Shown: in pieces, positions 5,111-64,000 of the stretch
Numbering within the stretch: the first letter of the stretch is position 1
Layout: every line of letters begins with the position of its first letter
DNA from: Eledone cirrhosa
Lineage: Eukaryota
Direction: 5' to 3'
Length of the DNA stretch: 64,000 bases
NCBI GenBank assembly: GCA_964016885.1
Contig: OZ024740.1
Span: 402,132,001 to 402,196,000, forward strand
Notes under the pieces: generated by a model
What the model was told of the DNA's origin: nothing
Seen by the model: the letters and a program-made list of their open reading frames with translations, nothing else
Database searches by the model: none
Translations under genes and position numbers: made by a program

Positions 5111-5132
5111 TAATGATAATAAAAGATAGATA

Positions 5133-5520
5133 TATTTCTTTATTTGCCACAAGGGCGCACAAGAAAAGGGGACAATACGAAGACATATGGCAGGGGTTTT
5201 ATTTACAGTCGTGTAAAAAAAGTTTTAACATAAAATATAACAATAGAAATCCCCAGTAGGGAGTAGGTGTTACAGATGGGTTGCTTTATACCCCGTAGAT
5301 AGAACAACCCTCAACTGCAGGAGCATGTTGTGTAAGTACTCCTTTCTTCCTTTTGTTCTTCTCTTCAACCTACAGGCTTATATATAGAGAAGGTCCAATC
5401 ACTCCGGCCATTTTTGCCACATTCACCCACCTTTCAGTAAATTTACTGGGGTACAGTACCTCTCTCTCCACTTTGATTCTCCTTCTAAAGTGGTACCTAA
5501 AGAAGAGTTTGAGTTGTTGT
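5133..5520 (-). mobile_element. Tx1-clade LINE, 5'-truncated 3' end (copy 1)
   Basis: Homologous to the ORF2 C-terminus and 3' UTR of the 12871-18693 element; TSD ataaaagatagata (5119-5132) / atgaaagatagata (5521-5534). Confidence 0.9.
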
Positions 5521-5777
5521 ATGAAAGATAGATAGGGACTAAATGAGAAGACGAGTGAAGATAAAAGGAAAATAAATTAAGTTATTATAAAGAGGATATG
5601 GAAGGATGAGAGGGGTGAATTCCAATTAGAGGCGGGGCATATCAATGATGCTATTGAAGATACAGGAAATTCTTTTCTTGCCATTAATGAATCTATAGTG
5701 GGAAATAGATATTTGCTGATGAAGATGGACGAAACTGAATATATTGATGTTGCTCCTACTCTGCCGTTACCGATGGT

Positions 5778-5970
5778 AATAATTGTTTCTACTTTTAGCA
5801 CACAGTCAGTAATTATCCCAGTGCATTACTGGTACTTTATTTTAGATACCCTGTAAGGATGAAAGGCAAAGTTAACTTCGGCGGGATTTGAAATCAGATC
5901 ATAAAGAGCCGTTACTCTATGCTGAAAGCATGACGCCCGACCCTCTACCGATACTGACAATCCACCGCCT
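5778..5970 (-). mobile_element. Full-length tRNA-derived SINE
   Basis: Reverse complement of the SINE head (A/B boxes), body and tail. Confidence 0.85.
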
Positions 5971-6228
5971 TTATAATTCTTTCTGTTTACCACATAGGTA
6001 AAATGTGGGGAGACATTACAATGATAATTTTAAAAAAAACGTAGGAGTTTTTTTGGTAATGGGAAACAAAAGAAAGATATGCATGGAAAACAAGTGTACA
6101 GAGGGAATAAAATAACATGACGCTATAAGCAACTCAGCCACATAGAACCCTCCAACGAACCGCATAAATCCCGAATAATTATGAATATATAGGATTTGTG
6201 CCATCACAAACTTAGCAATAATTAACAT

Positions 6229-6785
6229 ACGAACAACAGCGAAACCACCAAAACCACCACTACCACCATCACCCCTACCACCAACACCAACACCAACACT
6301 ACCACCAACACCAACACCAACACCGCCAACAACACCAGCACTGCCAACAACACCAACACCACCAACACCAACACCACCAACACCAGCACTACCAACAACA
6401 CCAACACCACCAACAACACCACCACCACCAACACCAACACCACCACTACCACAAACACCACCAACACCAACACCACCAACACCACCACTACCAACAACAC
6501 CACCAACACCAACACCACCACTACCACAAACACCACCAATACCAACACCAACACCAACACCACCAACAGCACCACTACCACCAATACCAACACCACCAAC
6601 ACCACCACCACCACCACCACTACCACCAACACCAACACCATCAACACCATCAAAACCACCAACACCACTAACACCAACACCACCAACACGACAACCACCA
6701 ACACCAACAACACGACCACCACCAACACCACCAACACCAACACCACCAACACCACCAACACCACCAACACCAACACCAACACAAC
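6229..6785. repeat. Cryptic (ACC/AAC)n trinucleotide array
   Basis: Mixed acc/aac/act triplets over ~550 bp; gives a spurious poly-V/L ORF. Confidence 0.9.
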
Positions 6786-7019
6786 ACAGATGAAGATTTC
6801 TTTGAAATAATTACAATAAGGATGATAATTGCTGCCAATGTTGACAAATCACAATGCCGTTTATTCCAGAAGATGTGCAGGAATATGAATTCCTGTCATT
6901 TCTTTAATTGTTTGGTTGAATATAAAATTTCCCGTTGGAGAATATTTTCTGTATTATTTTATATTGTTACGTTATACTTTACCATTTCCACATTCCAGTT
7001 TTTATTTCACGTCTCTCAC

Positions 7020-7560
7020 TCAAGACATTCTCTGCCTATGACCAATTCCACACCTCTCTCACTCTCTCTATCTCTCACTCTCCCTCAAACTCACTCTCTC
7101 TATCTCTCCCTCTCCCTCTCACTCATTCTCTCTATCCCTCTTGCACTCCCTCTCTCATTCTCTATCTCTCTTGCACTCTCTCTCTCTCTGTCTCTTTCTT
7201 CTATGTCTCTCTCTCTCTCTGCTTCTTTCTTCTATGTCTCACCTTCTATCTATCTCTGTCTCTTTCTTCTATGTCTCTCTTTCTCTCTCTCTCTCTCTCT
7301 TTCTCTTTCTTCTAAGTCTCTCTTTCTATCTCTCACTCTCTCTGTTTCTTTCTTCCATCTCTCGCTCTCTCCCTCCTCTCCCTCTCTCTCTCTCTCTCTC
7401 TCTCTCTCTCTCTCTCTCTCTCTCTCTCTCTTTCTTCTAAGTCTCTCTTTCTATCTCTCACTCTCTCTGTTTCTTTCTTCTATCTCTCTCCCTCTCTCTC
7501 TCGCTCTCTTTCTTCCATGTCTCTCTTTCTATCTCTCTCAACTCCATACATTTCTTTCCT
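7020..7560. repeat. Degenerate (CT)n polypyrimidine tract with internal ~120-bp duplications
   Basis: ttctaagtctctctttctatctctcactctctctgtttcttt repeated at ~7310 and ~7435. Confidence 0.85.
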
Positions 7561-60778: not shown

Positions 60779-61481
60779 TTATATTTTGCACATTAATAAA
60801 TATCCACGCAAAATATACTCAGTCTCATTTTATATATACGAAACTACGCTTACAATACACTCAACATTATACACACACACTCCATCTTTCTCTCTCACTC
60901 TATACTTATATATAGGAATCTCTCTGTCTCTCTCTCTCTCTCTCTCTCTCTCTCTCTCTCTCTCTCTATATATATATATATATATATATATATATATATA
61001 TATATATATATATATATATATATATATATATGTATGTATACATAGTGAGAGAGAGAGACAGATACATATATACACACACAAACACACATATATGCGTGTG
61101 TGTGTGTATCTGTCTGTCTGTCTCTCTGTGTATGTGTAATCAATGTTATCTGGAATACTCTACACAAACACTTGATGACAACTCGGTAGCAATGAATTCC
61201 TTGTTAGAAAGTTACAAAATATACAAGGTATCGATGTAAGGGTTATCTTTTAAACAAACATTACATGTTAATATGACTGGTTTCAGACAACACCAATAAC
61301 ACTGTTTATCTGAAGATACAAGGCTTTCTTTTCTTCAGATTCCAAATGAGAGGATTCGTTAGTAAAACTTACAAATTTAAAAATAGCTCTGAAATTACTT
61401 TTTGTATGGATGATGGGAGGGCGTATTGTTTTAAAATCAAATATAATTTCATACCTATCTATCTATCTATCTATCTCTTTA

Positions 61482-62177
61482 ATCATGGGCGCCCGGGCAG
61501 GGACCCTGCAAAAAAGATCTGTCCGAGGTGCGTGCGAGACGAAAAAACCGTCGCGCACGCATTCATACACTGCCCGGGCGTCACTGACCTGTGGGGCTAT
61601 GTAGAACGACTATTGTCGCGGGTGGGACCAATCCAGTTGACCACCGAGTCCATTGTCATGATCAAACCGCCACCCTCCTTCAAAAACGAAGGAGAGGCGG
61701 TTTTCCTTTGTGTGATAGCTATGGCGAAAGAGGTTGTATGGTGGACAAGGTTGAAAGGGCTGAGGTCAGACACCTTTCTCTCCGGCCAACAACTGATTCT
61801 TTTTTTCAAATACCACTTTGGAAGAAGAATCAGGATGGAGAGAGAGGTGCTGTACCCCAGCAAGTTTTATGAAAGGTGGGTGAAAGTGGCGAGAATGGCC
61901 CGAGTGAATGGGCCTTCTCTCTATATCAGCCTGTAGGTTGAGGAAAAGGAGGAGGAGAGGAAAGGAATACAAGCTCTTCGTACTCCTGGAGATGAGGGTT
62001 GCACATTTTTTTTTCGGGGGTATGTGTTACCCATATAAACTGTCTCCCTCTATTGGGGAAAATCGACTAACTTTTAAATTCCATCTGTGATAACATTTTA
62101 CACGTTTTTATTGTATGTAAACTTCCCCCTTTGTATTTGTCCCCTTCTTTTGTGCCCCTGTGGCTAATAAAGAAATA
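61482..62177 (+). mobile_element. Tx1-clade LINE, 5'-truncated (copy 6)
   Basis: ORF2 C-terminus KKICPRCVRDEKTVAHAFIHC...; TSD tatctatctcttta at 61468-61481 and 62178-62191. Confidence 0.93.
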
Positions 62178-62401
62178 TATCTATCTCTTTATCTATATCA
62201 AATTTAATTTATCCTTTTACCTCACCTACTGTGGTGCCCCCTATTGAACCAGAAACTCACACACACATAAGTATATATATATGTATATATATATATATAT
62301 ATATATATATATATATATATATATATATATATATATATATATATATATATATATATATATATATATATTTAAAAGTATAGAGGTGTAACACACGAGTTAT
62401 G

Positions 62402-62742
62402 ATATATTGGTAAAAGGAAAAGAAAATGCTGATCAATTGTTCCCAGTGAAAAATAGTTTAATTAGGAATAAGTAAAAATTAGTAATAGTATTGGTTAGTA
62501 TTCAGTTTTGGTTTTAAGTTTTACCGGTTGCGTATTTCTAATGCTTTTCAAAAATAATTTTGAGATAGAGCGCCCGTGATGTTTGCTCTAATCAGATTAG
62601 AACAAACATCACGGGCGCTCTAAAACTTAAAACCAAAACTGAATACTAACCAATACTATTAATAAGTTTTACTTAATCCTAATTAAACTATTTTTCACTG
62701 GGATCAATTTGTCAGCATTTTCTTTTCCTTTTACCAATATAT
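62402..62742. mobile_element. Fold-back element with ~120-bp arms plus an inner 27-bp hairpin, in (TA)n
   Basis: 62402-62523 inverted with 62620-62742; tagagcgcccgtgatgtttg / caaacatcacgggcgctcta. Confidence 0.85.
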
Positions 62743-63207
62743 ATATATATATATATATATATATAACCTGTTAGTTTTTTCGTTACTTTGGTATTGTGTG
62801 GTTAGGTTAGGTTTTGCCTACCACAATGTTCAATTTGTCAAGCTATTTAAACATATGTTATTATTCTAAGGACTCTTATTGAGTGCTTTTCTAACTCATT
62901 CATACTTTATGTCGACTTTGCTTTCGCACAGCCAAAGCTTCGATTTTTCTAAGCTTCCACTTGTATACTGAACTTGAACTATTGGTGTTAAACTAACACA
63001 TAATCTTATATATACGTTTGTATGTAGAAGATCCCGTTAAGGATGAAAGCAGCGATTATTTGCTTAAATTTAATGTTATTTAAATAAATATTTGCTCTAC
63101 GGTTCTTATATATTAGATATATATTTGTTCTTATTGGATTTTAGTCTTCGCATTTATTATTATTACTATATAATATATATATATATATATATATATATAT
63201 ATATATA

Positions 63208-63768
63208 TTTCGTTTCTGAATTTGTTTAGCAAGATTCTTTATCTAAAAACGTGTGTTGAAACACACAGAAATGACGCAATGTTTAGACAAATCACAGAGG
63301 CAATAAACATAAATGAACTCCAACCAAATTAAATAGAAAGCATGAATGGAATTGCAACATCACAACTTACAATTAAGGACAAAATGAAAACACACACACA
63401 CATAGAACAAACAACCAACCAGTAACATGTTAATGAACAAATAAATAAACAAATAAAAACACACACAGACACCCTGCTGTAACACATGCGCAAACTAAGC
63501 ACACAACACACACAAAAACAAGATAGCGTAGGACAGAACAAAGGAGAGGCACAAAACAAAGAGAAGAATCCTCAGTCACTGAAGAGGTCACAGAACGTGT
63601 GACGAAAGAATTTTGACAATATATGATCAACCGTCCGGTTGTGGAACCAACCAACTAACCGGAAATTTATAAATTCTTAAATTTATAAATTTAATTTATA
63701 ATAAATTGGAGTGAACATCTGGTGCGTGTGTTTCTTATTGGCAACATGACCCTCCCAAATATAACAAT
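63208..63768 (+). mobile_element. Longer copy of the 19368/33425 family with a hammerhead-like motif at 63575-63617
   Basis: GUCA-CUGAAGA-G-GUCAC-agaacgu-GUGAC-GAAA-GAAUUU-UGAC; 3' end gaccctcccaaatataacaa(ta)n; short inverted 5' arm 63208-63265. Confidence 0.7.
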
Positions 63769-63879
63769 ATATATATATATATATATATATATATATATAT
63801 ATATATATATATATATATATATATATCCATCTATTTAGCTAGCTGTCTGTGTCTCTATCTATCTATCTATCTTAATGTC

Positions 63880-64000
63880 TCTTTTTTTCAAATACCACTT
63901 TCGAAGAAGAATCAGGATGGAGAGAGCAGTGCTGTACCCGAACAAGTTTTGTGAAAGGTGGGTGAAAGTGGCGAGAATGGCCCGAGTGAATGGACCTTCT
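63880..64000 (+). mobile_element. Tx1-clade LINE 3' fragment (copy 7), runs off the window edge
   Basis: Matches 61800-61920; preceded by (tatc)n. Confidence 0.9.

Follow-up and report, generated by a model that had tools for sequence, protein, structure and literature searches.

Several non-LTR (non-long terminal repeat) retrotransposons of the Tx1 clade are described as inserting into microsatellites. Kibi and Koshi, from teleost fish, insert specifically into (TC)n and (TTC)n (PMC4494074, PMC3812793), and crocodilian Tx1 families (Tx1-1_Crp, Tx1-2_AMi and others) are reported to prefer (TTCC)n or (TTTC)n (PMC4494074), so that a tetranucleotide target is not new in itself. Here, a lineage of long interspersed elements (LINEs) is described from a 64-kb stretch of Eledone cirrhosa contig OZ024740.1 (positions 402,132,001 to 402,196,000, hereafter the window), where its copies lie at repeats of TATC. 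A first-pass annotation of the window had drawn the parallel with Kibi and Koshi as elements that target other microsatellites, and the cited accounts agree with it. The present element resembles them in having an APE-type endonuclease and inserting into a microsatellite, but differs in its TATC target and its cephalopod-like host, and identity as Kibi or Koshi is ruled out by the target, as TATC is found at all junctions. The crocodilian repeats have one strand made up entirely of pyrimidines, whereas TATC contains both purines and pyrimidines.

The Tx1L element of Xenopus laevis has a sequence-specific APE endonuclease whose nicking in vitro is almost wholly confined to its own target (PMC1950540), and is the model for the mechanism proposed below. 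However, the Tx1L target is a DNA transposon and not a repeat, and the betaB6-betaB5 loop, reported as 11 residues in Tx1L (PMC1950540), is 9 residues here, as long as that of L1 but different in sequence. Waldo (ACAY), Mino (AC), Dong (TAA) and Togen (TG) share the strategy of insertion into simple repeats, but belong to other clades and use other motifs, none of those given being TATC or GATA (PMC3812793, PMC4640811). No TATC- or GATA-targeting non-LTR element was found in the open-licence literature, though a Repbase or Dfam entry or the supplements of PMC4494074 may list one, and the case is absent from the available text of PMC4640811, PMC6050309, PMC10294476, PMC9004415, PMC9115989, PMC8869645 and PMC13295347. 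For Octopus vulgaris, 80 L1-Tx1 consensus families have been reported, 13 of them recently active (PMC13282606), and the present lineage may be among these or their orthologues. In the available main text and supplement of that study the word 'target' has 0 occurrences, and no insertion preference is given for these families. TATC is a further microsatellite target for a known repeat-seeking type of element, in an invertebrate lineage, and not a new kind of system.

Copies, junctions and the TATC target

The window has the character of AT-rich, animal-like DNA crowded with simple repeats. Masked self-comparison of the window, combined with searches using the long open reading frame (ORF), recovered one LINE lineage with seven copies (Table 1), which are referred to below by their position in kb (5.1k, 9.4k, 10.3k, 12.7k, 62k and 63.9k) or as the full copy. 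Six of the seven are 5′-truncated, each at a different point. The seven copies at TATC counted in the first-pass annotation are real, but they represent only four loci, with four copies stacked head to tail at 9.4-18.7 kb.

The sequence AATAAAGAAA occurs six times in the window when both strands are considered, and all six occurrences are element 3′ ends. Each of these visible 3′ ends has the form AATAAAGAAA-NN-TATCTAT, in exact register and with no poly(A), exactly as had been noted earlier. The two-nucleotide NN spacers are TA, TT, TA, GA, TC and TA. In three of the four readable cases, NN does not match the dinucleotide upstream of the 5′ target site duplication (TSD) copy, and TA recurs in three of the six ends, suggesting that NN is probably derived from the element RNA. 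With NN excluded, the four readable TSDs are 14 bp with one mismatch (5.1k), 15 bp (9.4k), 15 bp with one mismatch (full copy) and 14 bp exact (62k). The number of TSDs reported previously therefore stands, but the range of 14-17 bp given for them narrows to 14-15 bp, as 17 is reached only if NN is counted. All four run from TATC into non-repeat sequence. Two further pairings were not counted: the TSD caller paired the 12.7k copy wrongly, as the full copy now stands between it and the tract that was originally upstream, and a 16-bp match for the 10.3k copy consists entirely of repeat.

TATC is also present at the 5′ junction of every copy, and its orientation is constant, which bears out the statement that all seven lie next to (TATC)n in one relative orientation. 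For the four loci where the 5′ flank is not another copy, the probability of finding TATC at the 5′ junction by chance is ∼7e-13. This value derives from a background in which TATCTATC ends ≤11 nt upstream on the same strand at 96 of 106,702 non-element positions (9e-4); the criterion was chosen post hoc and occupied zones were masked from the background, and the conclusion is unaffected by either. As a control, TATCTAT was found at either end in 0 of 9 copies checked of the SINE-like (short interspersed element) repeat of the window. The element is present at 3 of the 4 loci that have at least four perfect TATC units, and none of the seven copies adjoins any of the listed (TC)n tracts of the window. 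The flanks consist of one repeat type in 7/7 copies and 4/4 loci, against a criterion of >20% (PMC4494074), counted in this one window. Because TATC is found at the 5′ junctions of all four loci whose upstream DNA is not another copy, it is target DNA and not just a tail, and TATC targeting by this lineage is strongly supported. The anatomy of the element, TATC present before insertion, the 3′ register, TSDs of 14-15 bp, the truncations and the reuse of one tract can all be read directly from the DNA. The sole empty tract of four units, at 60130-60146, is embedded in long (TC)n on both sides and lies 1.3 kb from an occupied tract.

Pairwise identities among the copies are 70-94%, indicating at least three or four subfamilies in place of the one family named in the first-pass annotation. 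Differences from the intact ORF2 at codon positions 1/2/3 number 103/86/214, 31/27/80, 21/19/53, 7/9/19 and 4/7/14 in different segments, with a weaker third-position bias in one further segment (28/28/44). By this bias the copies diverged as active elements, and at least three or four subfamilies have therefore retained the target, which argues for a heritable preference, encoded by protein or RNA, and against a chance cluster.

Table 1. Positions of the LINE copies, their target tracts and duplications, the ORFs of the full copy, and the SINE-like repeats in the window. TSD, target site duplication; UTR, untranslated region.
Feature	Position	Strand	Remarks
Solitary 5′-truncated copy (5.1k)	5135-5520	-	14-bp TSD copies at 5534-5521 and 5132-5119; whole unit 5119..5534; target run only 9 bp
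5′-truncated 9.4k copy	9421-10256	-	3′ TSD copy, 15 bp, at 9418-9404; unit 9404..10256
Degenerate TATC tract	10257..10325	-	∼63-66 bp, 20-bp higher-order period
5′ TSD copy of 9.4k element	10271-10257	-	End of the degenerate tract
5′-truncated 10.3k copy	10326..∼12675	-	∼2.35 kb; internal deletion of ∼620 bp, stops, frameshifts; 5′ end has ATC in common with the tract
2-nt spacer and (TATC)4 between 12.7k and 10.3k copies	12673..12690	-	Without unique flank
5′-truncated 12.7k copy	12691..∼12860	-	∼170 bp, 3′ UTR only; joins TATC at microhomology
2-nt spacer and 3′ TSD copy of full element	12854..12870	-	TSD copy 12868-12854; the 12.7k copy begins with its last 7 nt
Near full-length copy	12871..18693	-	5,823 bp
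ORF2	13086..16523	-	Open; 1,145 aa counted from first Met
ORF1	16557..18345	-	In-frame stop at codon 11; frame change near A8 run 17757-17750
(TATC)7 tract and 5′ TSD copy of full element	18694..18728	-	Tract 18728-18701; TSD copy, 15 bp, 18708-18694
(TATC)5 and solitary 5′-truncated 62k copy	61456..62191	+	Copy 61482-62175
TSD of 62k copy	61468-61481 and 62178-62191	+	14 bp, exact
(TATC)4, non-repeat DNA and 5′-truncated 63.9k copy	63856..64000	+	4-6 nt of non-repeat, non-element DNA between tract and copy
63.9k copy	∼63880->64000	+	3′ end beyond window; TSD unreadable
SINE-like copies	4409-4703, 5776-5969, 19584-19667, 21389-21499, 34604-34808, 36169-36774		
SINE-like copies, continued	37056-37251, 40799-41028, 44771-44936, 49303-49642, 52104-52293		

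Anatomy and relatives of the element

The full copy contains a 5′ leader of ∼350 nt, as estimated from this single copy, followed by ORF1, ORF2 and a 215-nt 3′ untranslated region (UTR) ending in AATAAAGAAA. ORF1 encodes a CX2CX4HX4C zinc knuckle, and its long tail is rich in Pro, Thr and Asn. Its match to Pfam zf-CCHC is weak (E=0.034, 14.7 bits, under the 20.8 cut-off), a profile search of ORF1 matched neither Transposase_22 nor RRM, and its ESM Atlas matches are all <0.9. A Type I ORF1, the type with an RRM and/or a CCHC knuckle and no Transposase_22, has been linked to Tx1 (PMC5203782). ORF2 includes an APE endonuclease, a reverse transcriptase (RT) with a YADD motif and a C-terminal CX2CX8HX4C zinc finger, with PF03372, PF00078 and PF13966 each above the Pfam cut-off, and its ESM Atlas matches carry the same Pfam families. 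The catalytic motifs of the APE domain are retained in an alignment with L1 ORF2p. ORF1 and ORF2 share one frame, and a single stop codon and 33 nt precede the ORF2 Met (16523-16559). The last 36 nt of each copy (e.g. 9421-9456) contain a possible stem-loop with a GCC/GGC inner stem, a 5-nt loop and an outer stem that pairs with the terminal AAGAA, and this folds in most copies. Rfam returned 0 matches at the gathering score.

The arrangement of APE, RT and zinc finger in ORF2, the 14-15 bp TSDs and the truncation of 6/7 copies at the 5′ end place the element in the L1 group of non-LTR retrotransposons. When compared with solved structures, a set that contained no CR1, RTE or I group members, ORF2 came nearest to L1 ORF2p (E 3e-50, residues 7-866), ahead of R2 (E 1e-19, RT only). 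The architecture of the element, with an L1-group ORF2 and a candidate CCHC knuckle in ORF1, would be consistent with membership of the Tx1 clade. A quick RT tree of 52 rows placed ORF2 within a clade of 15 rows that includes two cuttlefish proteins (SH-aLRT 100) and lies outside the 4 plant L1 rows; the sole protein named 'Transposon TX1' is fungal and is not in this clade.

The closest named relatives of ORF2 are from Argonauta hians (59% identity over 42% of the searched region), and those of the cuttlefish Acanthosepion pharaonis are 37-52% identical. Other matches are closer, with up to 77% identity. Taken together, the relatives would point to a cephalopod host, most likely an octopod. 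One relative with 59% identity, P0171, carries a Herbaspirillum metagenome-assembled genome (MAG) label, and is more likely to be animal DNA carried into a bacterial assembly than a bacterial gene.

Insertion mechanism and alternatives

The reading that we consider probable is that an L1-group, Tx1-like lineage uses target-primed reverse transcription to insert into TATC repeats of at least two units, in fixed orientation and register. By this route, ORF2p would bind its own RNA at the 3′ end that lacks poly(A), possibly via the short stem-loop, and the APE domain would nick the GATA-reading strand opposite TC^TATCTATC. The freed 3′ end would then prime reverse transcription, probably with the aid of base pairing to UAUC at the end of the RNA, and the second strand would be cut 14-15 nt further on. 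An intact tract would be left upstream of each insertion, where later copies could land to form a head-to-tail stack. Those parts of the scheme that we infer are the nick, the end of the RNA, and how the work is shared between RNA and enzyme.

Several points weigh against this reading. If the RNA ends in UAUC, the position of the nick is ambiguous by whole repeat units, and the junctions thus cannot separate recognition by the enzyme from pairing between RNA and primer. The evidence base is four loci in one 64-kb window, with no empty orthologous site among them. The possible stem-loop has 0 compensatory pairs among 8 pairs in 6 sequences, and its folding z-scores span -2.5 to +0.3. A profile search of bacterial genome contigs for independent copies matched 15 stretches, of which the one confirmed was unrelated (30% identity, E 1e-4) and was not used. 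In addition, a single read-through RNA could have carried the 12.7k and 10.3k copies together, which would reduce the number of insertion events from seven to six.

Sequential tandem insertion at one target has been described for SINEU-3 (PMC4494074), and the stack in the window is evidence of repeated use of one site. In the simplest history compatible with the junctions, each new copy would have inserted into the tract remaining upstream of its predecessor, and the probable order is 9.4k (the founder), 10.3k, 12.7k and then the full copy. The first-pass annotation had described 4-7 bp of unique flank in the TSDs. A non-repeat part is indeed present in 4/4, but the flank of the full copy, CACGGAG, aligns with the 3′ UTRs of other copies and therefore forms the 5′ end of an older copy of the element itself, the truncated 12.7k copy.

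Two features of the tracts and junctions are recorded here in their own right. The tract at 10257-10325 contains 3.3 copies of its 20-bp higher-order unit, each ending in some variant of the boundary of the tract, which may be due to boundary slippage or to remnants of abortive insertions that duplicated the target site. At the 5′ truncation points, bases in common with the target (ATC, TCTATC-like, CTCT) are often seen, the copies with such a context being 12691-12860, 10326-12675, 61482-62175 and 9421-10256, and a TATC-like motif lies within the element's own 3′ UTR at the break point of the 12.7k copy. The shared bases would fit with microhomology-guided 5′ joining.

Insertion had also been proposed to be positioned near the tract boundary. 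This holds for 4 of the 6 evaluable copies, which cross the 3′ edge of the tract, but 2 do not and one of the crossings is trivial. Recognition of the 3′ boundary by the element is possible, if doubtful; a requirement of the second cut for non-repeat T/A-rich DNA 14-15 nt downstream could, for example, bring it about. Such recognition would modify the mechanism proposed above and is compatible with it. In the three tracts that are longer than the TSD and have a readable TSD (at least 4, 5 and 7 units), insertion was each time at the last usable site. Exact tests, using hand-set site counts and present tract lengths and excluding the 5.1k (uninformative) and 63.9k (no 3′ end) copies, gave P=0.019, 0.030 and 0.050 for the last-site count and P=0.051, 0.014 and 0.032 for the mean rank in three scenarios retaining one or both counter-examples, and P=0.010 when restricted to the three longer tracts. 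At the 63.9k copy, the non-repeat nucleotides at the 5′ junction also favour a boundary, and TTA is found ≤7 nt from the tract end at 3/5 occupied 5′ junctions versus 0/7 empty tracts (Fisher P=0.045, with the motif chosen post hoc), which hints at a two-part site.

However, unique flank is absent from the 5′ junctions of the 10.3k and 12.7k copies, where their 5′ ends join the tract directly via short microhomologies, and ∼63 bp and 16 bp of TATC, respectively, follow their 3′ ends. The target run of the 5.1k copy is shorter than a TSD, making an edge crossing unavoidable for one of the four 'edge' TSDs. A TSD wholly within a tract is unreadable, so that readable TSDs are biased toward those that cross, and of the 43 empty TATCTAT sites in the window, a 14-bp TSD would cross an edge at 41 in any case. 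The TSD of the full copy ends in CACGGAG, which is not T/A-rich. Tract lengths also shift after insertion, and the tests assume zero slippage since then, an assumption made doubtful by the 20-bp periodicity of the 63-bp tract. That most TSDs cross the edge is due chiefly to the shortness of the tracts, whose lengths are close to that of the TSD, and a tilt toward the 3′ end of the tract is possible as a real but secondary effect.

A more elaborate form of this idea seems somewhat less likely again. An independently evolved APE domain would recognise GATA/TATC as a two-part target, with the first nick in the repeat register and the second cut in non-repeat DNA 14-15 nt off; by seeking the 3′ tract boundary it would leave the tract intact upstream, regenerate the landing site and build stacks over subfamily generations. 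Reading of the edge, if real, is the part that would surprise specialists.

Selection at the level of the primer is unlikely to account for the target, but has points in its favour. Here nicking would be loose, the transcript would read through its own TSD and end in UAUC, and only GATA 3′ ends would prime, so that the target would be inherited via the RNA end and not the enzyme. The absence of poly(A) and the fixed 2-nt spacer before TATC are as expected, and slippage of a UAUC tail could have given rise to the 3′ tracts of 16 bp and ∼63 bp. For Bov-B and Sauria SINE, an effect of 3′ repeats on nicking or priming has been proposed, yet Bov-B members are described as rarely flanked by targets like their 3′ repeats (PMC13295347). 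The tight TSD lengths (14, 14, 15 and 15) also argue against loose nicking, and target choice of the Tx1 type has been ascribed mainly to the endonuclease (PMC4494074). Priming by the RNA end is probably a contributor to the preference and not its whole cause.

It is very improbable that TATC is an element-encoded tail that seeds microsatellites after untargeted insertion. TATC does follow every visible 3′ end, the tracts with the heaviest occupancy are also the window's longest, and LINE 3′ tails in snakes are reported to seed AATAG microsatellites (PMC6050309). However, at all four loci with non-copy DNA upstream, TATC precedes the 5′ truncation point, where a tail cannot place it, and in the four TSDs it is duplicated along with non-repeat flank. 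The check raised in the first-pass annotation, whether TATC is a mere tail, can thus be answered in the negative at 4/4 loci, and this reading was rejected. Local duplication or misassembly of a single insertion is hardly credible and was rejected for most copies, as truncation points and flanks differ and identities among the other copies are 70-90% with third-position-biased divergence, even though four copies are adjacent and the 62k and 63.9k copies, with 1.7 kb between them, share 94% identity over 117 nt.

Target choice has shifted many times in the Tx1 clade, between U2 small nuclear RNA, DNA transposons, TC, TTC and TTCC/TTTC, and a TATC-specific invertebrate lineage adds a mixed purine-pyrimidine repeat to this series. 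With the intact ORF2 it can be asked which features of the APE domain determine specificity. Second-strand cutting is the least understood step of target-primed reverse transcription, and the tight 14-15 bp TSD, with the possible 3′-edge tilt, makes it testable by a genome count. GATA/TATC repeats are common in animal genomes, and the enzyme could therefore serve as a repeat-directed insertion tool. Insertions at GATA markers would produce null alleles.

Other repeats in the window

A SINE-like family of ∼195 bp is present in at least 11 copies that are 72-98% identical (Table 1). The copies occupy A/T-rich sites and have short ATT or AT repeat ends. The family has no Rfam match, and presumably resembles the tRNA/CORE SINEs of octopus.

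Elements with long inverted repeats were found at 32400-33184, 48015-48709 and ∼62415-62735, the third of which was spotted by eye. The inverted repeats of the first two are 259 bp at 97% identity and 126 bp at 99%, respectively, and partial matches to the 32400-33184 element occur at 2110-2380. These elements are probably non-autonomous DNA transposons. A 376-bp repeat pair (25075-25447 and 56750-57122) shares 95% identity, and a 135-bp part of it recurs at 24665-24799. The region 47022-47933 is a minisatellite with a 41-bp unit in 22.5 copies (93% matches).

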